64,000 nucleotides of DNA from Candidatus Micrarchaeota archaeon (GCA_021810105.1 JAJZJM010000001.1:296850-360849); one strand, 5' to 3'. Counted from the first letter of the stretch, positions 84-40,623 are shown. Translations and numbers: made by a program. Notes: generated by a model not told the origin, from the letters alone.

Positions 84-224
84 TGGGGCCGCCGGGATTT
101 GAACCCGGATTTGCTGGTTTCTTCATAATTTTCTTAATTCCAGATTATCATCATCGCGGTTTTCCGCTCATCTTTTGTTTAAATATCTGGAGCCAGCTGC
201 GCTGCCAGGTTACGCTACAGCCCC
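84..224 (-). tRNA. tRNA-Trp (anticodon CCA) with a ~68-nt intron at the canonical 37/38 position
   Basis: The reverse complement reads GGGGCTG-TA-GCGT-AACCTGGCA-GCGC-A-GCTGG-CTCCAG[intron]A-CCAGC-AAAT-CCGGG-TTCAAAT-CCCGG-CGGCCCC-A. The acceptor (one G-U pair), D, anticodon and T arms all pair. Exons are ~224-187 and ~118-84, and the intron is ~186-119. No CCA is encoded. Confidence 0.85.
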
Positions 225-9718: not shown

Positions 9719-9780
9719 AGAAAGGCAATTTTACCGAGAGACTCTTTGCAGGAATTACGCGGAAAAACGGCAAAAAAAAC

Positions 9781-9790
9781 ATATAAATAT
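9781..9790 (+). promoter_or_regulatory. Putative TATA box upstream of the MoxR-like gene
   Basis: ATATAAATAT is centred ~34 nt upstream of the ATG at 9819 and preceded by an A-rich tract. This would give a very short 5' UTR. Confidence 0.3.
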
Positions 9791-9818: not shown

Positions 9819-11261
9819 ATGGTAGAAAAATCAATGCCTTCAGAAAAAAATCCGGATCAGACTGCATTATTAGATTCGGCAAGGAAAAAAATTAGTGATC
9901 TTTCTTCTGTAATAGGAGATAACTTTTTCCTTGGGTTGCCAGATGTAAAATTTAACAGATTACCGCCTGCTGTTGCCATCACAATTATTACAACACTCAC
10001 AGGTGGCAGCCAAATACTATTCGGTAATTATGGTAGAGGAAAAACCTCTCTTGCTGAGGATATTTCCTCTTTGATTTTCGGCGTACCTCTAAGCGTAGTT
10101 CAGCGCGCTGAAGCCCACGGCAGTGACCAAGCTGCGCCAGAAAGCTATATAGCGGTACCTGTAATGAAAGACCTTGATAGAATAAGATGGAAGCCACATG
10201 TGCTTCTGCCAGCACGTATATTTGATGAGTTTAACAGGCTGCCTGAAAGAGCGCAAGTACATTACTTAGACGGAGTAGGTAGAGGATATTATGAATATGG
10301 CGGCATACTTCTGAGAACTGATAAGGGACCGTTCTTCGGCACTGCCAACTGGCCGGATGGTGGTAATAACGAACTCATACCACCCATTAAAGACAGGATA
10401 GACAGCGCGGTTGTTGTAACAGGTGTCAATCCTGCCCAAGAGCTTGGGAAAGGTGCAAGGGAGTTTAATGAAGAGGATATCGATGATAAAGAGATATCTG
10501 ATCAGATGAATAGAGTGCTTAGCGATGTTACAGTAGGACCTGGCGAGTCGGTATCAGAAATGTATGCTTCTCTGAAAGAAAAGATGGAGGAATTATCTTC
10601 AAGATTCAGGGTGGTGCTTAGTAATAACCTAGGTTTGAAAGTTCCAAAACCCAACGAACTTGCTGCTGTACGCAAGGCAATGAAGGAGATGCCAGTATCC
10701 AAGGATGCGTTGGGATTCCGCTATTTTTTGAACTCTGAGTTTACATGCCCAAACTGCGGAGAAAAAACTCCAGAGCATACGAGTTGCTCAGAAACATGCC
10801 ACTACTTCTATGAAATTAGTAGTGGAAGTAAAAGTGCAAGTGATCAAGGCTACGCATTTTCTAACCTTACAACGCACGTATCCAGCAGGGTCACTGATCC
10901 TACTTCAGGAGCATTGCATACATATTCAGCCGCATATGCTTGGCTCATGGGAGATAGCGTAGTGGAGCCCAAGCATATTGCAGCTATTATGCCATATGTG
11001 CTTTGGCATAGGGTGAAATTCACAGAAAGATTTACAGCGGCGAATAGACCTACTACGAATGGCAGAAATCTAGAGCTCTACCTGTCAGAAGTACTGGCAG
11101 CCCAGATCCTGAGAAGATATGAAGATGCAAAGCCAGAGGTTATGAACGCGATTGACGCTTTAACGAAAGGAGATGGAAAGACATTGGAAAGACTTGTTAG
11201 GACTCATGATCATCCATCAATGTGGCATGCTAAAAACCTATATGATGCACTACGCGTATAA
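9819..11261 (+). CDS. MoxR-like AAA+ ATPase with a Cys-rich (zinc-ribbon-like) insertion
   Basis: Walker A is LFGNYGRGKTS. Walker B is in the MoxR style (ARIFDEFNRLPERAQ, compare DEINRA). FFGTANWPDGGNNELIPPIKDRIDS resembles the MoxR ATxNP...LPeAxlDRF segment. A CPNCGEKTPEHTSCSETCH cluster lies at nt 10744-10800. Confidence 0.75.
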   Translation: MVEKSMPSEKNPDQTALLDSARKKISDLSSVIGDNFFLGLPDVKFNRLPPAVAITIITTLTGGSQILFGNYGRGKTSLAEDISSLIFGVPLSVVQRAEAHGSDQAAPESYIAVPVMKDLDRIRWKPHVLLPARIFDEFNRLPERAQVHYLDGVGRGYYEYGGILLRTDKGPFFGTANWPDGGNNELIPPIKDRIDSAVVVTGVNPAQELGKGAREFNEEDIDDKEISDQMNRVLSDVTVGPGESVSEMYASLKEKMEELSSRFRVVLSNNLGLKVPKPNELAAVRKAMKEMPVSKDALGFRYFLNSEFTCPNCGEKTPEHTSCSETCHYFYEISSGSKSASDQGYAFSNLTTHVSSRVTDPTSGALHTYSAAYAWLMGDSVVEPKHIAAIMPYVLWHRVKFTERFTAANRPTTNGRNLELYLSEVLAAQILRRYEDAKPEVMNAIDALTKGDGKTLERLVRTHDHPSMWHAKNLYDALRV

Positions 11262-11323
11262 ATTTGATTTTGTGAAGGCTGAAGACTGCCACCGACCTAA
11301 AAACAATAATAAATAGAGATTAA

Positions 11324-11710
11324 ATGACCCAAATAGAAAAGCATCCAAGCGCCGAGACGCGCGTTGTGCCTGATGAAAGAAGCCGCTCTTTAATGAGACT
11401 TGAGAGAGTGTTGCATGAAGCGGAAGGAGAGACGCCCAGGGCATTGGTGAGGATGCCTGATGATGCAGTTAAGGAGACTGAGAGAGTTAAAGAATTGAGG
11501 GGGGCGTTGGAGAGGTTGAGTGAGGATAATGAGAGGTATACAGTTGCCGTGAGGAGTAGGAATGTTAGTGTGGAGATATTGGAGAGGTTGATTAGGGATG
11601 AGGATGTAGGTGTTAGGAGTGGAGTGGGAAGGGATGAAAATCTAAATCCCAGTAAGAAGAAAAAGGAAAAGCTTCTGTCGAGAGCTTGGAGATATTTTAG
11701 AAGGAAGTAG
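11324..11710 (+). CDS. Short LRV/HEAT-like repeat protein (paralog 1: shared head, 1-2 repeats, basic tail)
   Basis: It shares the head motif LERVLHEAEGETPRALVRMPDDAVKETER and a repeat RNVSVEILERLIRDEDVGVRSGV with the downstream array. It ends in a K/R-rich tail (PSKKKKEKLLSRAWRYFRRK). Confidence 0.75.
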   Translation: MTQIEKHPSAETRVVPDERSRSLMRLERVLHEAEGETPRALVRMPDDAVKETERVKELRGALERLSEDNERYTVAVRSRNVSVEILERLIRDEDVGVRSGVGRDENLNPSKKKKEKLLSRAWRYFRRK

Positions 11711-11721
11711 AGGAGATATTG

Positions 11722-13323
11722 ATGAGTGATAAAAAGACTGTGATTAAGCGTGATGTTCCTCAGCACGCTAATCCAGAACCTTTATCATCTAAATTGTACG
11801 AAGCATGGACAGAGACGCTTAAAATTATGGGGAGTCCTCCACTTTTACTGCCGTGCTTCCAAACAGTAACAAGATCGCATACTTCAGAAATAGACATGAA
11901 AACGAAGCAGATATCTATAGACACAGGCTTCTTTGGAATGCTTCTCGGAAAGGGGCTAAGCGAGAAAGATGCCTTCCAGGCACTATGCATGCATGAGTTG
12001 GGCCACTATAGGTATCACCCTTACGATCTAGCCACCCTTCTGTTAGAATTGAATAGCCTAAAGTACAATGATGAAGGCAAATTCGGCGGACCAAACGCCA
12101 ATTCTATAAGGTTGTTATATGATGATTTCTGCGATAATCTGTGGCTGCTGCGTATGATTAAAGAGCCTAAGATAAACTTATTATACCGCACTATTGACCA
12201 GGATAATAAAATGCCTGCCATAGTGATAATGCGCGCATATCTTCAGTCTGTAAGCGGCGTAGATTTTGGTATTGAAGAGTCCAAACTTAGCGAGGAAATG
12301 CAGAAGAAGGTTGCTGCGCTAAGAAAAATCGATTTTTTCAGTAGGGAAGCGAACCTTGAAAATATTTCCAGATTCGCAAAGATAATGATGGATATCGCTG
12401 CAGAGGAAGAAGAGAATTTAGGAGGATGTGGCGGTATTGATATCAAAGACTTTGCTGAACAAGATGTAGAGCAAGCTATGCGTAAGATAGTAGACCAAGT
12501 GACAAAAGACGATTGGGAAGGTATCAAGAAATGGGTTGATGAGCAGAGCGGGAATATAGGTACGAAATTGAGAACCGATCGTGAAGAGAAAAAAATGAAA
12601 GCTTCTGTCGAATACTACAAGACAAAGGCATCGCTTTACCCGATAAGGATATTGGGAATGCGGTACGTAGTAGAGGGTACTTCAAAAGCAGGCATAGATA
12701 ATTTTAATACAGGAGATAGGATATCCAGCCTAAACCCATATAGAAGCTTTGGGATATTTATACCTGATTCAGGCATAACGAAGAAGAACGTGTATGCACC
12801 GTCCAAAAAATTCGTACCGAGCAAAAAAGTGCCGGATTCGATAATTGTGTTGGACTCTTCGGGCAGCATGCCAAACCCAATAACAGAGAATTCAAATGCC
12901 GTGCTAGGAGCCTTTGCTGTAGCAATGGCATACCTGAAAAACAAGGGCAACGTGGACGTGATAAATTTCTCTTCAGCGGCGAAGACCGTAAAGTATAGAG
13001 ATAGCGAGACAGTTTACAGGACACTGGTGGACTTTTTGGGGGGCGGCACAGACCCTCCTGTAAAGGAACTGACGGACCTGTTAAAGGAAAATAAAAAAGA
13101 TATCACTGTGATAACCGATGGCTTTGCCGGTGCAGATTCCAGCATGGTAAAACAGTTTATGCAGCTGCTAGATTCGGCAGGACAGACACATAGGGTGTCG
13201 TTAGTATATATAGGGAAAAATCCTCCGGAAGAGTTTACAAGTTATCGCAATATCAAGTTCCATGTTGTGACTAGGGAGACCGACATTGCTTCGATAGTAA
13301 TAGGCGATATCGAATGGCAATGA
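11722..13323 (+). CDS. VWA-domain protein with an N-terminal HExxH putative metallopeptidase module (DUF2201-like architecture)
   Basis: CMHELGHYRYHP contains an HExxH motif. The C-terminal VWA domain has a MIDAS motif (IIVLDSSGSMPNP, DxSxS) and ITVITDGFAG. An AGGAG sits ~8 nt upstream of the ATG at 11722. The last 10 nt overlap the first array gene. Confidence 0.75.
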   Translation: MSDKKTVIKRDVPQHANPEPLSSKLYEAWTETLKIMGSPPLLLPCFQTVTRSHTSEIDMKTKQISIDTGFFGMLLGKGLSEKDAFQALCMHELGHYRYHPYDLATLLLELNSLKYNDEGKFGGPNANSIRLLYDDFCDNLWLLRMIKEPKINLLYRTIDQDNKMPAIVIMRAYLQSVSGVDFGIEESKLSEEMQKKVAALRKIDFFSREANLENISRFAKIMMDIAAEEEENLGGCGGIDIKDFAEQDVEQAMRKIVDQVTKDDWEGIKKWVDEQSGNIGTKLRTDREEKKMKASVEYYKTKASLYPIRILGMRYVVEGTSKAGIDNFNTGDRISSLNPYRSFGIFIPDSGITKKNVYAPSKKFVPSKKVPDSIIVLDSSGSMPNPITENSNAVLGAFAVAMAYLKNKGNVDVINFSSAAKTVKYRDSETVYRTLVDFLGGGTDPPVKELTDLLKENKKDITVITDGFAGADSSMVKQFMQLLDSAGQTHRVSLVYIGKNPPEEFTSYRNIKFHVVTRETDIASIVIGDIEWQ

Positions 13324-14018
13324 AAGGGAAGCAAACTAAGCCTGAAATCGCTTTAAAGGGACTTAAGAGAGTGTTGCATGAAGCGGAAGGAGAGATACCC
13401 AGAGCATTGGTGAGGATGCCTGATGATGCAGTTAAGGAGACTGAGAGAATTGAGGAATCAATGAGAAGATTGGAGAGGTTGAGTTGGAGTGAGAAGTTTA
13501 CGATGGCGATAGACCCAAAAACAGACGGATATATGCTTGATGCGCTTAGTAGGGATGAGGATGCGTATGTTAGGAGTGGAGTGGCAGTGAGTGAGAATGT
13601 TAGTGTGGAGATATTGGAGAGGTTGAGTAGGGATGAGGATGCAGGTGTTAGAAGTGAGGTGGCGAGGAGTAGGAATGTTAGTGTGGAGATATTGGAGAGG
13701 TTAAGTAGGGATGAGGATGCGTATGTTAGGAGTTGGGTGGCAATGAATAGGAATATTAGTGTGGAGATATTGGAGAGGTTAAGTAGGGATGAGGATGCAG
13801 GTGTTAGAAGTGAGGTGGCGAGGAATAGGAATGTTAGTGTGGAGATATTGGAGAGGTTAAGTAGGGATGAGGATGCAGGTGTTAGGAGTGGAGTGGCAGG
13901 GAGTAGGAATGTTGGTGTGGAGATATTGGAGAGGTTGAAAAATGATTCTGACGAATATGTAAGGGATATGGCAATTAAGACTTTGGAAAAAATAAACAGA
14001 GGATCTGGAATAATGTGA
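13314..14018 (+). CDS. LRV/HEAT-like repeat protein, paralog 2 (head + 6 x 26-aa units, including the tail cap)
   Basis: The head is MAMKGKQTKPEIALKGLKRVLHEAEGEIPRALVRMPDDAVKETERIEESMRRLERLSW. Repeats follow NVSVEILERLSRDEDAGVRSEVARSR with a 78-nt period. The tail is ILERLKNDSDEYVRDMAIKTLEKINRGSGIM. Confidence 0.8.
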   Translation: MAMKGKQTKPEIALKGLKRVLHEAEGEIPRALVRMPDDAVKETERIEESMRRLERLSWSEKFTMAIDPKTDGYMLDALSRDEDAYVRSGVAVSENVSVEILERLSRDEDAGVRSEVARSRNVSVEILERLSRDEDAYVRSWVAMNRNISVEILERLSRDEDAGVRSEVARNRNVSVEILERLSRDEDAGVRSGVAGSRNVGVEILERLKNDSDEYVRDMAIKTLEKINRGSGIM

Positions 14019-14024
14019 TATCGA

Positions 14025-14729
14025 ATGGCAATGAAAGGGAAGCAAACTAAGCCTGAAATCGCTTTAAAGGGACTTAAGAGAGTGTTGCATGAAGCGGAAG
14101 GAGAGATACCCAGAGCATTGATGAGGATGCCTGATGATGCAGTTAAGGAGACTGAGAGAATTGAGGAATCAATGAGAAGATTGGAGAGGTCGAGTAGGAA
14201 TGAAAAGTTTACGATGGCCATAGACCCAAAAACAGACGGATATATGCTTGATATGCTTAGTAGGGATAAGGATGTAGTTGTTAGGTGTAATGTGGCGGGG
14301 AATAGGAATGTTAGTGTGGAGATATTGAAGAGGTTGAGTAGGGATAAGGATGTAGTTGTTAGGTGTAATGTGGCGAGGAGTGAGAATGTTAGTGTGGAGA
14401 TATTGGAGAAGTTGAGTAGGGATAAGGATGTAGTTGTTAGGTGTAATGTGGCGAGGAGTAGGAATGTTAGTGTGGAGATATTGGAGAAGTTGAGTAGGGA
14501 TAAGGATGTAAGTATCAGGTATAATGTGGCAATGAATTGGAATGTTAGTGTGGAGATATTGGAGAGGTTGAGTAGGGATAAGGATGTAGGTATCAGGTAT
14601 AATGTGGCAATGAATTGGAATGTTAGTGTGGAGATATTGGAGAGGTTGAAAAATGATTCTGACAAATATGTAAGAGATATGGCAATTAAGACTTTGGAAA
14701 AAATACAAGGAGAATCTGGAATAATGTGA
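14025..14729 (+). CDS. LRV/HEAT-like repeat protein, paralog 3 (6 units, SRDKDVVVRCNVA variant)
   Basis: The head is almost nucleotide-identical to paralog 2. The repeats carry K-for-E and VVVRCN / V[SG]IRYN substitutions. A 6-nt spacer (tatcga) follows the previous stop. Confidence 0.8.
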   Translation: MAMKGKQTKPEIALKGLKRVLHEAEGEIPRALMRMPDDAVKETERIEESMRRLERSSRNEKFTMAIDPKTDGYMLDMLSRDKDVVVRCNVAGNRNVSVEILKRLSRDKDVVVRCNVARSENVSVEILEKLSRDKDVVVRCNVARSRNVSVEILEKLSRDKDVSIRYNVAMNWNVSVEILERLSRDKDVGIRYNVAMNWNVSVEILERLKNDSDKYVRDMAIKTLEKIQGESGIM

Positions 14730-14735
14730 TATTGA

Positions 14736-15206
14736 ATGGCAGTGAAAAGGAAGCAAACTAGGCCTGAAATCGCTTTAAGGAGACTTGAGAGAGTGTTGCA
14801 TGAAGCGGAAGGAGAGATGCCCAGAGCATTGGTGAGGATGCCTGATGATGCAGTTAAGGAGACTGAGAGAATTGAGGAATCAATGAGAAGATTGGAGAGG
14901 CTGAGTTGGCGTGAGAAGTTTACGATGGCGATAGACCCAAAAACAGACAGATATATGCTTGATGCGCTTAGTAGGGATGAGGATGCGTATGTTAGGTTTT
15001 ATGTGATAGGGAATGAGAATGTTAGTGTGGAGATGTTGGAGAGGTTGAGTGAGGATAAAAAGGTACTTGTTAGGAGTGGAGTGGTGGGGAGTAGGAATGT
15101 TAGTGTGGAGATATTGGAGAGGTTGAAAAATGATTCTGACAAATATGTAAGAGATATGGCAATTAAGACTTTGGAAAAAATAAACAGAGGATCTGGAATA
15201 ATGTGA
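14736..15206 (+). CDS. LRV/HEAT-like repeat protein, paralog 4 (3 units)
   Basis: It has the MAVKRKQTRPEIALRRLERV head and the same tail. It is exactly 78 aa (3 x 26) shorter than paralogs 2 and 3. Confidence 0.8.
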   Translation: MAVKRKQTRPEIALRRLERVLHEAEGEMPRALVRMPDDAVKETERIEESMRRLERLSWREKFTMAIDPKTDRYMLDALSRDEDAYVRFYVIGNENVSVEMLERLSEDKKVLVRSGVVGSRNVSVEILERLKNDSDKYVRDMAIKTLEKINRGSGIM

Positions 15207-15212
15207 TATTGA

Positions 15213-15683
15213 ATGGCAGTGAAAAGGAAGCAAACTAGGTCTGAAATCGCTTTAAGGAGACTTGAGAGAGTGTTGCATGAAGCGGAAGGAGAGATACCCA
15301 GAGCATTGGTGAGGATGCCTGATGATGCAGTTAAGGAGACTGAGAGAATTAAGAAATTGCGGATAAAATCGGAGAGGTTGAGTATGGATGATGAGCTTGA
15401 GATGGCTCTGGACCCGAAAACAGATAAGGATATCCTTGATGTGCTTAGTAGGAATAAGGATGTGAGTATTAGGTGTGGGGTGGCAAGGAGTGAGAATGTT
15501 AGTGCGGAGACATTGGAGAGGTTGAGTAGGGATAAGAATGCGTATGTTAGGAGTTGGGTGGCAAGGAATAGGAATGTTAGTGTGGAGATATTGGAGAGGT
15601 TGAAAAATGATTCTGACAAATATGTAAGAGATATGGCAATTAAGACTTTGGAAAAAATAAACAGAGGATCTGGAATAATGTGA
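15213..15683 (+). CDS. LRV/HEAT-like repeat protein, paralog 5 (3 units, divergent linker)
   Basis: Head and tail match the family. The linker differs (IKKLRIKSERLSMDDELEMALDPKTDKDILDVL). Confidence 0.8.
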   Translation: MAVKRKQTRSEIALRRLERVLHEAEGEIPRALVRMPDDAVKETERIKKLRIKSERLSMDDELEMALDPKTDKDILDVLSRNKDVSIRCGVARSENVSAETLERLSRDKNAYVRSWVARNRNVSVEILERLKNDSDKYVRDMAIKTLEKINRGSGIM

Positions 15684-15689
15684 TATCGA

Positions 15690-16472
15690 ATGGCAGTGAA
15701 AAGGAAGCAAACTAGGCCTGAAATCGCTTTAAGGAGACTTGAGAGAGTGTTGCATGAAGCGGAAGGAGAGATGCCCAGAGCATTGGTGAGGATGCCTGAT
15801 GATGCAGTTAAGGAGACTGAGAGAATTGAGGAATCAATGAGAAGATTGGAGAGGCTGAGTTGGCGTGAGAAGTTTACGATGGCGAGAGACCCAAAAACAG
15901 ACGGATATATGCTTGATATGCTTAGTAGGGATAAGGATGTAGTTGTTAGGTGTAATGTGGCGAGGAATAGGAATGTTAGTGTGGAGATATTGGAGAGGTT
16001 GAGTAGAGATAAGGATGCGGGTGTTAGGTATAATGTGGCGGGGAGTAGGAATGTTAGTGTGGAGATATTGGAGAGGTTGAGTAGGGATGAGGATGCGAGT
16101 GTTAGGTATAATGTGGCAATGAATTGGAATGTTAGTGTGGAGATATTGGAGAGGTTGAGTAGAGATAAGGATGCGGGTGTTAGGTATAATGTGGCGGGGA
16201 GTAGGAATGTTAGTGTGGAGATATTGGAGAGGTTGAGTAGGGATAAGGATGTACTTGTTAGGAGTGGAGTGGCAGGGAATGAGAATGTTAGTTTGGAGAT
16301 ATTGGAGAGGTTGAGTAGAGATAAGGATGCGGGTGTTAGGTATAATGTGGCGGGGAGTAGGAATGCTAGTGTGGAGATATTGGAGAGGTTGAAAAATGAT
16401 TCTGACAAATATGTAAGAGATATGGCAATTAAGACTTTGGAAAAAATAAACAGAGGATCTGAAATAATGTGA
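15690..16472 (+). CDS. LRV/HEAT-like repeat protein, paralog 6 (7 units)
   Basis: At 260 aa it equals 234 plus one 26-aa unit. Its repeats are SRDKDAGVRYNVAGSR, SRDEDASVRYNVAMNW and similar variants. Confidence 0.8.
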   Translation: MAVKRKQTRPEIALRRLERVLHEAEGEMPRALVRMPDDAVKETERIEESMRRLERLSWREKFTMARDPKTDGYMLDMLSRDKDVVVRCNVARNRNVSVEILERLSRDKDAGVRYNVAGSRNVSVEILERLSRDEDASVRYNVAMNWNVSVEILERLSRDKDAGVRYNVAGSRNVSVEILERLSRDKDVLVRSGVAGNENVSLEILERLSRDKDAGVRYNVAGSRNASVEILERLKNDSDKYVRDMAIKTLEKINRGSEIM

Positions 16473-16478
16473 TATCGA

Positions 16479-17177
16479 ATGGCAGTGAAAAGGAAGCAAA
16501 ATAGGCCTGAAATCGCTTTAAGGAGACTTGAGAGAGTGTTGCATGAAGCGGAAGGAGAGATACCCAGAGCATTGGTGAGGATGCCTGATGATGCAGTTAA
16601 GGAGACTGAGAGAATTGAGGAATCAATGAGAAGATTGGAGAGGTTGAGTTGGAGTGAGAAGTTTACGATGGCGATAGACCCAAAAACAGACGGATATATG
16701 CTTGATATTCTTAGTAGGGATGAGGATGTAGGTGTTAGAAGTGAGGTGGCGAGGAATAGGAATGTTAGTGTGGAGATATTGGAGAGGTTAAGTAGGGATG
16801 AGGATGCAGGTGTTAGGAGTGGGGTGGTGGGAAATAGGAATATTAGTGTGGAGATATTGGAGAGGTTAAGTAGGGATGAGGATGCAGGTGTTAGGAGTGG
16901 GGTGGTAGGGAATGAGAATGTTAGTGTGGAGATGTTGGAGAGGTTGAGTAGAGATAAGGATGCGTATGTTAGGAGAGAGGTTGCATGGAATAGGAATGTT
17001 AGTGTGGAGATATTGGAGAGGTTGAGTAGGGATGAGGATGCGGGTGTTAGGAGAGAGGTGGCAAGGAGTGAGAATGTTAGTGTAGAAATATTGGAGAGGT
17101 TGAAAAATGATTCTGACAAATATGTAAGAAATATTGCAATTAAGACCCTGAAGAAGTTAAAAAGATCTAATTGCTGA
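16479..17177 (+). CDS. LRV/HEAT-like repeat protein, paralog 7 (6 units, divergent last residues)
   Basis: It shares the family head. Its repeats are SRDEDAGVRSGVVGN[RE] and VRREVA[WR]. The tail ends in ...IAIKTLKKLKRSNC rather than ...EKINRGSGIM, which marks the end of the array. Confidence 0.8.
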   Translation: MAVKRKQNRPEIALRRLERVLHEAEGEIPRALVRMPDDAVKETERIEESMRRLERLSWSEKFTMAIDPKTDGYMLDILSRDEDVGVRSEVARNRNVSVEILERLSRDEDAGVRSGVVGNRNISVEILERLSRDEDAGVRSGVVGNENVSVEMLERLSRDKDAYVRREVAWNRNVSVEILERLSRDEDAGVRREVARSENVSVEILERLKNDSDKYVRNIAIKTLKKLKRSNC

Positions 17178-17424
17178 TGCAATCAGAAGGCTTTGGATAT
17201 GATGTTACATGTGATTACACCTTGCGAAGAATGTTAGGATAACACCACTGCAACGCATTCTACACGAGGAAGTATTCAATGGTGTGGGAGATAGTATAGG
17301 TTTAAATATTTTTATGCTGATATTATGACGGCTATGTGCATTATCGATTACCTATATTTTGGCTCGTTATAAAATAGGACTTTGTATATGGCGTACTTAT
17401 ATTTGGAATAAATGGTGAATTATC

Positions 17425-39839: not shown

Positions 39840-40623
39840 GCCATACATAATACGTGTGTCTTCTCAAAAAGGAGGTGTTGGTAAGACTGCAATATCTGTA
39901 AACTTTGCATCCGCATTAAGAAGTCTTGGCTATAGAACCTTGGTAATAGATTTTGATTTTACAAACCCTAGCATTGGATTTCATTTGGGGCTTGAAGGCA
40001 TAAATTCTGGTACAAAAGCGGCTATGGAAAAGAAGACCGCTCTTAGCAGCGTTGTTTCAATACATGAGCCTACAGGCATGCATGTAATAGCTGGAGAGGT
40101 AAAAGGGTGGGATGTACTTCCTGATAAAAGCGTATTGTCCTCTTTTGTTAACGGGCTAAAGAAGACAAATTACAACTTTATCATAGTTGATACCGCCCCA
40201 GGATTTGAACCTGAGGCAGAGCTTAACTATTTTGACGAGGGGTTGATAATAACAACTCCTGACGTACCTTCATGTGCTAGTGCGGTAAGGCTTTCCCATA
40301 AATACAATAGATCCAAGCTAAGGCATTCTCTTATTGTAAATAAGATAAGGAATACCAGATACGAGCTTAGTTTTGATGATATAATGGACATGTATGGAGG
40401 AGACTATGCATCACAACTGCCTGAAGATGATGCCGTTCCTGAAGGGATTGCAGCGCACATACCAGCATATAATCTTAAACCTAGATCAAGATTCTCACGA
40501 AGCATATTCTCACTTGTTAAAAGGCATGTTTCAGCGATTGATACAGACGAACCTCCAATTGCTATGCGTAAGAAAGGACTATGGCACAGGTTTTCAACCA
40601 AATTTCCTTCAAGAAAACGCTAA
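39832..40623 (+). CDS. MinD/ParA-family P-loop ATPase
   Basis: It has a deviant Walker A (VSSQKGGVGKTAISVNFA) and a Walker B (FIIVDTAPG). It overlaps the upstream surface-protein gene by 8 nt. Confidence 0.8.
   Translation: MNKPYIIRVSSQKGGVGKTAISVNFASALRSLGYRTLVIDFDFTNPSIGFHLGLEGINSGTKAAMEKKTALSSVVSIHEPTGMHVIAGEVKGWDVLPDKSVLSSFVNGLKKTNYNFIIVDTAPGFEPEAELNYFDEGLIITTPDVPSCASAVRLSHKYNRSKLRHSLIVNKIRNTRYELSFDDIMDMYGGDYASQLPEDDAVPEGIAAHIPAYNLKPRSRFSRSIFSLVKRHVSAIDTDEPPIAMRKKGLWHRFSTKFPSRKR

Follow-up and report, generated by a model that had tools for sequence, protein, structure and literature searches.

The window analysed here is a stretch of 64,000 nucleotides from Candidatus Micrarchaeota archaeon (GCA_021810105.1, JAJZJM010000001.1:296850-360849), which carries at positions 9819-17177 an operon-like set of 9 closely packed plus-strand genes (Table 1). 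From 5' to 3' the intergenic spacings are 62, 8 (11 from the ATG), −10, 6, 6, 6, 6, and 6 nt, the negative value marking a 10-nt overlap of the start of gene 4 with the end of gene 3. An initial annotation, made from the sequence by a model, had described 9 co-directional genes with minimal spacing, and an ORF listing and a script recover the same layout and spacings. All 4 motifs that it had named, GNYGRGKT, FDEFNR, HELGH, and DSSGS, are present. Two antisense ORFs over the array (464 and 727 aa) were rejected as artefacts of its purine-rich repeats.

Table 1. Features of the MoxR-VWA locus, in window coordinates, and the basis for each
Feature	Position	Strand	Basis and remarks
Candidate archaeal promoter of the ATPase gene	9770..9789	+	A-rich stretch then CATATAAATA, which lies 30-39 nt before the ATG of gene 1; read from sequence
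Gene 1, divergent MoxR-clade AAA+ ATPase, 480 aa	9819..11261	+	Motifs, profile, predicted fold
Gene 2, LRV-family paralog 1, 128 aa, 1 full repeat	11324..11710	+	ORF listing, Pfam LRV 14.5 bits, repeat parsing
Gene 3, zincin-VWA protein, 534 aa from TTG or 533 aa from ATG at 11722	11719..13323	+	Motifs, relatives, AF2 fold
Gene 4, LRV paralog, 234 aa, 5 full repeats	13314..14018	+	Pfam LRV 75 bits, HEAT 42 bits; repeat parsing
Gene 5, LRV paralog, 234 aa, 5 repeats	14025..14729	+	Pfam LRV 62 bits; repeat parsing
Gene 6, LRV paralog, 156 aa, 2 repeats	14736..15206	+	Pfam LRV 26 bits; repeat parsing
Gene 7, LRV paralog, 156 aa, 2 repeats	15213..15683	+	Pfam LRV 34 bits; repeat parsing
Gene 8, LRV paralog, 260 aa, 6 repeats	15690..16472	+	Pfam LRV 89 bits, HEAT 64 bits; repeat parsing
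Gene 9, LRV paralog, 232 aa, 5 repeats, variant tail	16479..17177	+	Pfam LRV 84 bits; repeat parsing

By its motifs and predicted fold, the product of gene 1 is a divergent MoxR-class AAA+ ATPase. It has the MoxR-clade signature of Walker A (GNYGRGKT), Walker B of the form hhhhDExNR (FDEFNR), sensor 1, and the Arg-finger DR motif, and its residues from about 306 to 327 form a Cys-rich insert. Invariant in ATPase alignment A1 are G69, G72, G74, K75, T76, D136, E137, N139, R140, T175, N177, D192, and R193. The AF2 model has a pTM score of 0.81, and Foldseek places it closest to the MoxR protein 2R44 (E = 5 × 10−11, TMt 0.70), followed by BchI (1G8P), MCMs, and RavA. The ATPase family profile also reaches 2R44 in the PDB, at E = 8 × 10−11. 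The Pfam scores of gene 1 are just under threshold (AAA_lid_2, 22.4 versus 22.7; AAA_5, 18.3 versus 22), its homolog P0004 clears both models at 33.9 and 30.6 bits, respectively, and AAA_3 is present in homologs P0009 and P0010. With 2R44 as the nearest fold and profile match, and with homologs above the AAA_5 and AAA_lid_2 thresholds, the earlier call of a MoxR-type ATPase is upheld. Since neither the ATPase nor the VWA domain of the window reaches its Pfam thresholds, the MoxR and VWA assignments rest on homologs, profiles, and predicted folds.

In the product of gene 3, an N-terminal helical domain with the HExxH motif (HELGH) is joined by a disordered linker (approximately residues 309-367) to a C-terminal VWA domain, whose MIDAS is complete (D378-S380-S382, T443, and D466) and sits on a Rossmann-like alpha/beta fold. 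Among 56 relatives, D378, S380, S382, and D466 are kept in all and T443 in 55, and the H, E, and H of HExxH are kept in 56, 50, and 55, respectively. In the AF2 model (pLDDT 74.6), 3 strands forming a small beta-sheet precede the HExxH helix at 81-98, and the Foldseek matches are VWA domains, namely the MDN1 MIDAS domain, TFIIH p44, and CMG2. Both the conservation and these matches agree with the earlier reading that gene 3 joins HELGH to a VWA domain with an intact MIDAS, at a VWA_2 score below the Pfam cut-off (21.4 versus 27). The top viral fold matches are phage CobT-like VWA proteins. The N-terminal domain appears to be M48-like, a putative metalloprotease: 4 of the 56 relatives match Peptidase_M48, and there is a profile match to the minigluzincin MJ1213 (projannalysin) at E = 0.045. 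The model resembles minigluzincins and peptidase M48 in having its HExxH helix after a small beta-sheet, but the matches of gene 3 to M48 and MJ1213 are all weak and below significance, and no third zinc ligand was located. Because the catalytic Glu is missing in 6 of the 56 relatives, proteolysis may not be essential. Proteins of the DUF2201_N/DUF2201 type have a putative metallopeptidase followed by a VWA-like domain and are encoded beside MoxR-like ATPases. Gene 3 shares this domain order and this neighbor, but it matches neither model at E up to 0.1, and 2 of the 56 relatives match DUF2201, weakly.

The remaining 7 genes, gene 2 and genes 4 to 9, belong to a single LRV/HEAT-like family with a repeat period of 26 aa. 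Six of the paralogs score 26 to 89 bits against the Pfam LRV cut-off of 21.6, with gene 2 below it. Besides its full units, 25 in all for genes 4 to 9, every paralog carries a degenerate N-cap and a HEAT-like C-cap. Of the 78 aa of the head, about 55 are unique sequence and the rest are the N-cap, and the core reads RVLxEAxGExPRALVRMPDxAxxETE. The tail is conserved in 6 of the 7. Gene 2, lying between the ATPase and VWA genes, has its own N-terminus, the conserved head core, its one repeat, and a basic tail differing from that of the other paralogs. The annotated family of 7 paralogs with a shared head, and a shared tail in 6, thus stands, but the full repeats number 1 to 6 rather than 1 to 7, and the head is about 55 aa plus N-cap rather than about 58 aa.

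The 25 units have 23 distinct signatures. Repeat entropy peaks at positions 7, 10, 11, and 14, a helical periodicity, and pN is 0.355 at variable positions versus 0.04 at scaffold positions, these positions having been picked after seeing the data. Paralogs of one locus have the same head and tail and repeats that differ at few positions. Beta-helix arrays of related loci show the same regime of variation, with variable positions rich in W/Y/F/D/R. Other samples contain mosaic proteins and further repeat variants that are new, as well as recombinant forms of gene 2 (P0027 and P0028). The longest exact stretch common to gene 2 and any other paralog is 45 nt, which makes chimeras of k = 141 assembly unlikely. 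Repeat variation is focused on few positions, and natural populations contain mosaic recombinant forms. All of the data are short-read metagenome assemblies, which leaves the exact copy number, and some of the rearrangements, uncertain.

The pairing of ATPase and VWA protein is conserved across lineages, and the third slot beside it is filled by unrelated solenoid families. Of the distinct loci, 33 extend 1.5 kb or more upstream of the VWA gene, and in 29 of these the gene immediately before it is the ATPase gene. For the VWA family, which counts 782 cluster representatives, all source names seen are uninformative, nearly all being "hypothetical protein." Even at the distant locus L005, homology to gene 3 spans the whole VWA protein (24% identity, E = 2 × 10−29). 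A sister species has the same arrangement as the window, with 62% identity in the ATPase, 67% in the VWA protein, and LRV genes kept on both sides, so the arrangement is not due to chance. Downstream sequence is available for 41 loci, and in 28 of them a beta-helix protein of the GXGXG family, usually in single copy, adjoins the pair; multi-copy GXGXG arrays occur in Marsarchaeota, Aenigmatarchaeota, and other MAGs. Locus L065 has LRR_4 proteins with a common head and tail as its third component, L005 has a pair of 297- and 300-aa proteins with their first 214 nt identical and their 3' ends near-identical, and at L042 an N-terminal peptide is common to 6 proteins. In the window proteins themselves, no Pfam match to a third-component family other than LRV/HEAT was found. 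The heads of different third-component families have no homology detectable by hhalign (probability 0.1%) or a motif HMM, so a single shared docking signal is not supported. Comparison across genomes speaks for a functional link of the third component to the pair. The proposed tie of LRV genes to the MoxR-VWA pair is supported for the window and the sister species, but distant orthologous pairs adjoin GXGXG, LRR, or other families. The conserved rule is a pair plus a solenoid-type third component, not a pair plus LRV, and LRV is a lineage-specific substitute. Identified hosts are archaea (Marsarchaeota, Aenigmatarchaeota, and Woesearchaeota) and a few bacteria. Aenigmatarchaeota and Woesearchaeota are DPANN groups.

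PADLOC-DB 2.0 defence models give only noise-level partial matches (E at least 7 × 10−4), and there is no obvious defence-island context at the window, the neighbors being housekeeping genes. No effector domain (nuclease, toxin, or pore) is evident here besides the zincin, and no link to a reverse transcriptase, virus, or plasmid was found. A described family with this architecture was not found in Pfam, NCBIfam, PADLOC, or the literature searched, and the locus keeps the standing of a candidate undescribed system that the annotation had given it.

A close precedent is the work of Kaur, Burroughs, Iyer, and Aravind (2020; PMC7159879) on the mechanism of MoxR-vWA pairs and on repeat-bearing ternary conflict systems, which are of VMAP, FtsH, and beta-propeller types. 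The locus shares with them a MoxR-clade ATPase, a MIDAS vWA protein, and a further component, the frequency of superstructure-forming repeats (HEAT, TPR, and pentapeptide beta-helix there), and the theme of diversification with paralogous expansion. It differs in that the repeats are separate proteins, where theirs are C-terminal fusions to the vWA, in its C-terminal VWA domain placed behind a zincin domain, in having no reverse transcriptase or DGR, and in hosts, theirs being multicellular bacteria and those identified here archaea and a few bacteria. A VMAP-type assignment was rejected, given that the VWA domain is C-terminal here, where those systems have effector domains fused behind it, and that no VMAP, FtsH, or beta-propeller component was detected, whether in the window proteins or in the third components of L005, L065, L022, L047, L042, L030, and L019.

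Classical pairs (RavA-ViaA, NorQ-NorD, CbbQ-CbbO, CoxD-CoxE, and the Mg/Co chelatases BchI-BchD and CobS-CobT) likewise have an adjacent partner with a MIDAS VWA, and the ATPase fold here is nearest to 2R44, then BchI and RavA. Unlike this locus, their client is a defined enzyme or cofactor, their VWA partner is without HExxH, and tandem hypervariable paralogs are absent. The Bat operons of MoxR proper, as Snider and Houry reportedly set out in 2006, consist of MoxR, DUF58, the VWA proteins BatA/B, and TPR proteins. These too are MoxR-VWA operons that encode alpha-solenoid repeat proteins, but the window proteins scanned have no DUF58, sequence inspection finds no membrane anchors, and the Bat repeat proteins are not tandem hypervariable paralogs.

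The locus is best read as a system not yet described, a variant of the MoxR-VWA ternary systems in which the solenoid component can be swapped and, at this locus, is diversifying. In full, we propose with moderate confidence a chromosomal, operon-like, 3-component system whose solenoid has become a diversifying recognition repertoire. Its core would be the MoxR-clade ATPase, presumably a hexamer, paired with the M48-like HExxH and MIDAS-bearing VWA protein. The third component, a single GXGXG beta-helix in most relatives, would here have been replaced by the LRV/HEAT-like alpha-solenoid and amplified to 7 tandem paralogs. By its conserved head, and possibly its tail, each paralog may be engaged by the zincin domain or at the MIDAS site of the VWA domain. 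The MoxR ring, hydrolysing ATP, would remodel, load, release, or license processing of the engaged paralog, and the hypervariable helix face of the repeats would bind ligands.

A housekeeping role is a somewhat unlikely alternative, in which the solenoids form a scaffold or superstructure that the MoxR-VWA pair serves by folding, polymerising, or disassembling them, with heads and tails stacking head-to-tail and no part in conflict or recognition. Characterised MoxR-VWA pairs are indeed maturation or assembly factors (PMC7159879; see also PMC9976466), the pair lies near housekeeping genes (Mrp/ParA-like and thermosome), canonical relatives carry one ordinary-looking GXGXG protein, and end-to-end assembly would fit conserved heads and tails. 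Hypervariable positions, copy-number changes, and mosaic population variants are, however, unusual in structural housekeeping proteins, the family is patchy and rare, close-clade patterns having found only 2 loci among 185,579 species representatives, and the fold of the third component is swapped freely between lineages. It is also unlikely that this is simply pro-protein processing, with the zincin cleaving the head to activate or release solenoids that are themselves effectors, such as inhibitors or sponges, and the VWA domain and ATPase only delivering substrate. The initial annotation had already proposed head processing by the HExxH module, 50 of 56 relatives keep an intact HExxH, with weak links to M48 and minigluzincins, and the heads are conserved far more than the repeats, with 24 columns invariant between the window species and the sister species (alignment A8, heads with N-cap). 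Against it, the catalytic Glu is lost in some relatives while the MIDAS is invariant, and evidence of a cleavage site is absent; in any case this explanation overlaps the preferred one and is compatible with it.

That a selfishly expanding LRV family merely landed beside an unrelated MoxR-VWA pair is very improbable. LRV genes do adjoin the pair only in the window species and one sister species, and more distant relatives have other neighbors, but one LRV gene separates the ATPase gene from the VWA gene, the following one begins 10 nt before the VWA gene ends, a search of 5.8 billion clusters turned up the LRV-head family nowhere else, and independent lineages fill the same slots with other multi-copy solenoid paralogs. 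We give hardly any credence to the array being an assembly artefact or the product of retroelement (DGR) diversification. Contigs from other samples do differ in array structure, some skipping the VWA gene, and a reverse transcriptase adjoins the distant homolog in L005. The array nevertheless recurs in several assemblies and in the sister species, and samples with VWA-skipping contigs also hold matching short VWA-bearing ones. A DGR target was rejected, since tblastn finds nothing RT-like in the window (best E = 0.73) and the L005 paralog mismatches show no adenine bias.

Returning to the recognition repertoire, if the repeat face binds ligands, the array would diversify most plausibly against viruses or other invaders, as in the MoxR-vWA ternary conflict systems. 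Lamprey VLR LRR cassettes, TALE repeats, and DGR-diversified receptors also present near-identical solenoid repeats with few variable surface positions and mosaic or recombinant cassettes, a likeness of evolutionary regime only, with no homology and no common machinery.

All nine genes are co-directional and tightly packed, as the initial annotation had described; an ORF list and a script give intergenic spacings of 62, 8 (11 counted from the ATG at 11722), -10, 6, 6, 6, 6, and 6 nt. A candidate promoter is placed at ~9770 to 9789, ahead of gene 1. The motifs reported for the two core proteins are present, GNYGRGKT and FDEFNR in the 480-aa product of gene 1 (the MoxR-clade ATPase) and HELGH and DSSGS in the 533/534-aa product of gene 3 (the zincin-VWA protein). 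The remaining genes, gene 2 and genes 4 to 9, form a single family of seven paralogs. The 26-aa repeat unit first proposed for them stands, but the 1 to 7 copies counted at that time are amended to 1 to 6 full units, with 1 in gene 2 and 5, 5, 2, 2, 6, and 5 in genes 4 to 9. Pfam LRV matches six of the seven paralogs at 26 to 89 bits, and these six have a HEAT match in their tails as well; for gene 2 the LRV score stays under the cutoff of 21.6. Two long antisense ORFs lie in array regions with a GC skew of 0.55 to 0.63, and were rejected as genes because they arise incidentally from the purine-rich repeats.

The window ATPase scores slightly below Pfam thresholds, and its homologs exceed those for AAA_5 and AAA_lid_2. 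Walker A, Walker B, sensor 1, and the DR motif show no variation within alignment A1. A single-sequence PDB search gave nothing above noise (best E = 0.3). The family profile reaches the MoxR protein 2R44 at E = 8e-11. The AF2 model (pTM 0.81) has the same protein as its nearest fold (E = 5e-11, TMt 0.70), followed by BchI, MCM, and RavA. The homologs, the family profile, and the model fold together uphold the assignment to the MoxR class. A cysteine cluster, CPNC...C..TCH, is inserted at residues ~306 to 327, separating the AAA+ core from the lid, and may be a zinc ribbon. It is kept in the sister species, a second archaeon with the same gene arrangement, is partial in the ATPases of loci L011 and L019, and is missing from ATPases P0003 to P0008; model confidence is low at residues 310 to 348.

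The gene 3 protein is covered by no Pfam family, with DUF2201 and DUF2201_N unmatched, and a single-sequence PDB search with it gave zero matches. Its model (pLDDT 74.6) has an N-terminal helical domain, a disordered linker, and a C-terminal VWA domain with structural matches to MDN1-MIDAS, TFIIH p44, and CMG2. The MIDAS residues do not vary among 56 relatives, of which 56, 50, and 55 have the H, E, and H of HExxH, respectively. The HExxH helix of the model comes after three short strands. A weak Peptidase_M48 match in 4 of the 56 relatives and a weak match to minigluzincin MJ1213 (E = 0.045) are the sequence ties that suggest that the N-terminal domain is gluzincin-like. An exhaustive profile search puts the family at 782 representatives at E ≤ 1e-3, with 253 of them at E ≤ 1e-30. 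The source names seen are all uninformative and nearly all "hypothetical protein", the exceptions being "DUF58 domain-containing protein" and "vacuolar-type H+-ATPase subunit F/Vma7"; organisms named in the records are a WOR-3 bacterium, Planctomycetota, and Woesearchaeota.

The LRV array is tied to the ATPase/VWA pair. In the sister species, with an ATPase 62% and a VWA protein 67% identical to those of the window, LRV-head genes flank the ATPase gene and also occur immediately downstream of the VWA gene. Contig L001 matches the window array with 100% identity and is therefore no independent confirmation. The LRV-head family makes up only 13 clusters among 5.8 billion, all from the window species and the sister species, between which the head core is unchanged and the repeats have diverged. 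The linkage proposed at the outset holds, but LRV proteins are not the general partner of the pair; they are a lineage-specific occupant of a conserved slot for a third component.

We collected 47 distinct loci around VWA-family genes and analyzed them with a script combining ORF calling, HMMs, and all-against-all BLAST. The ATPase is directly upstream of the VWA gene in 29 of the 33 loci with enough upstream sequence, and a protein of ~230 to 280 aa, belonging to one family, adjoins the VWA gene in 28 of the 41 with downstream sequence. This family matches Pfam GXGXG (38 to 41 bits versus 32.5), and the pattern I+xLLxKNPDLL is conserved at its N-terminus. From these two adjacencies, the canonical system joins a MoxR-like ATPase and a zincin-VWA protein to a GXGXG beta-helix protein as a triad. 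About a dozen loci have the third component multiplied or replaced, and the LRR_4 proteins of locus L065 are a third solenoid class in the slot. Since GXGXG, LRR_4, LRV, and other occupants are found across the loci, unrelated solenoid folds fill one genomic slot beside a homologous core.

Paralogs within one locus have heads and tails in common, and judging by sequence the start shared by six proteins at locus L042 looks like a common N-terminal tag around the ATPase/VWA pair. The idea that all third-component families share one head motif was rejected, as a motif HMM fails to separate LRV, LRR, and other heads from controls; LRV heads and GXGXG N-domains have no detectable homology by hhalign (probability 0.1%). 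The bacterial branch (proteins P0016/P0017, locus L016), used as an outgroup only, is without obvious paralogous third components. Separately, one MAG (L012) carries a second, unrelated MoxR-VWA pair ~8 kb from its GXGXG-type system, and loci L057 and L064 have two enzyme-like genes between the ATPase and the VWA gene, with a 640-aa Ser/Thr-kinase-like protein downstream.

Coordinates of features in the window and in fetched loci (L numbers)
Feature	Source	Position	Strand	Remark
Nine-gene array	window	9819-17177	+	
MoxR-clade ATPase (gene 1)	window	9819-11261	+	
Cysteine cluster of the ATPase	window	10734-10799	+	
Zincin-VWA protein (gene 3)	window	11719-13323	+	
Antisense ORF, 464 aa	window	13271-14665	-	stop-free reverse frame of purine-rich LRV repeats
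Antisense ORF, 727 aa	window	14999-17182	-	stop-free reverse frame of purine-rich LRV repeats
tRNA, 141 nt	window	84-224	-	probably intron-containing; Rfam; missed by ARAGORN
Odd tRNA-Asn (anticodon att)	window	40189-40287	-	ARAGORN alone
MBL-fold protein	window	~2187-2960 (L001 2369-3142)	+	Pfam Anti-Pycsar_Apyc1 (PF23023) and Lactamase_B_2; housekeeping-looking surroundings
GXGXG arrays, 2-4 genes	Marsarchaeota MAG, Aenigmatarchaeota MAG, three other MAGs			near-identical 18-aa units
Three LRR_4 proteins (50-98 bits)	L065, 759-kb contig Ga0272448_1000002	4663-10243		same head (MNLDQILKELGKKGDIP...) and same tail; both sides of the pair
Two proteins, 297/300 aa	L005			first 214 nt identical; 3' ends near-identical
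Reverse transcriptase	L005	7059-8744	-	RVT_1 and HTH_40; phrog_1423 at 1e-111
Six neighboring proteins	L042	5409-11072		at least 2 unrelated families; all start M[AST]DFFxKFK[DE]I
Second MoxR-VWA pair	L012	9880-12083		bpMoxR PF20030 with AAA_5 and AAA_lid_8, then a 576-aa VWA protein
Radical-SAM (347 aa) and polyprenyl-synthase-like (344 aa) proteins	L057 and L064	5806-7864		

The 25 LRV units have 23 distinct signatures. Ten repeat positions are invariant, and entropy peaks at positions 7, 10, 11, and 14 (1.85 to 2.07 bits), and also at 16, an i, i+3/4, i+7 spacing that fits a single helix face. At nine variable positions pN is 0.355 versus 0.040 at the scaffold, and pN/pS is 1.38 versus 0.33, a contrast that is indicative only because the positions were picked after the data had been inspected. 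The beta-helix arrays have the same pattern of variation, with positions 5, 6, 9, and 10 variable and rich in W/Y/F/D/R. Other samples contain mosaic proteins and seven repeat variants missing from the window. In P0027 the head of gene 2 is joined to the body of gene 7, and in P0028 a gene-7-like head is joined to the body of gene 2; these reciprocal mosaics come from within the same metagenome samples (L002, L004, and L068 versus L066 and L067) and suggest unequal recombination within the array. The rival explanation is that the junctions are k=141 chimeras, and real recombination is more likely, given that the longest exact match of gene 2 to the other paralogs is at most 45 nt. Contigs L002, L004, and L068 had seemed to come from strains lacking the VWA gene. 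These are probably no real losses, as the same samples also yield short contigs on which LRV genes flank the VWA gene; they carry one LRV gene, a mosaic of 119 aa, the VWA gene, and a further two LRV genes. Retroelement-driven diversification (DGR) was rejected because no reverse transcriptase was found in the window and the changes are without adenine bias. At L005 a divergently oriented reverse transcriptase gene adjoins an ATPase/VWA operon that is only distantly related; the differences between paralogs there have no adenine bias, and so give no sign of diversification by it.

MoxR-VWA pairs are widespread, and clients are known for only a handful. What the locus adds is a conserved triad in which an ATPase and a zincin-VWA protein are joined by a solenoid protein, the third slot accepting wholesale exchange among alpha-solenoid, LRR, and beta-helix folds while locus-specific heads and tails are kept. 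In MoxR-vWA pairs, the MIDAS site binds a substrate peptide and the ATPase ring powers conformational change or release (PMC7159879). On this model, the VWA or zincin protein would catch the solenoid proteins by their conserved heads and perhaps also by their tails, and the ATPase would remodel them, load them, or license their processing. Client recognition by these machines is thereby made testable, with the head peptides as the obvious handle. Taking the variable helix face as a binding surface, the seven paralogs could be a diversifying recognition set, and small hypervariable solenoids of this kind could serve as natural binder scaffolds.

By analogy with repeat-rich MoxR-vWA ternary conflict systems, the hypervariability, the changing copy number, and the exchange of folds would be read most economically as signs of a role in conflict or immunity. 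Two alternatives are live, one structural or in assembly and the other in pro-protein processing, and no effector or defense-island context was found that directly backs the conflict or immunity role. PADLOC, NCBIfam, and PHROGs gave no useful assignment for the system proteins, a virus or plasmid origin is unsupported by IMG/VR, INPHARED phages, or PLSDB, which hold no relatives, and a literature search found no paper connecting MoxR or vWA with GXGXG or LRV. The multicopy hypervariable versions would be a rare archaeal diversifying recognition repertoire, made by recombination and not by a retroelement. We consider it possible, though rather unlikely, that there is a hitherto unrecognized archaeal and partly bacterial three-component class in which a MoxR/zincin-VWA machine services interchangeable solenoids (LRV in the window, LRR and beta-helix in other lineages), deployed in several lineages as tandem, recombining cassettes whose binding faces are hypervariable, and amounting in archaea to a germline-encoded, innate-immunity-like repertoire independent of reverse transcriptase.

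Elsewhere, the source organism encodes a thermosome, archaeal ribosomal proteins, and archaeal RNase P proteins, which mark it as an archaeon, and the window holds two tRNA calls and an MBL-fold protein.
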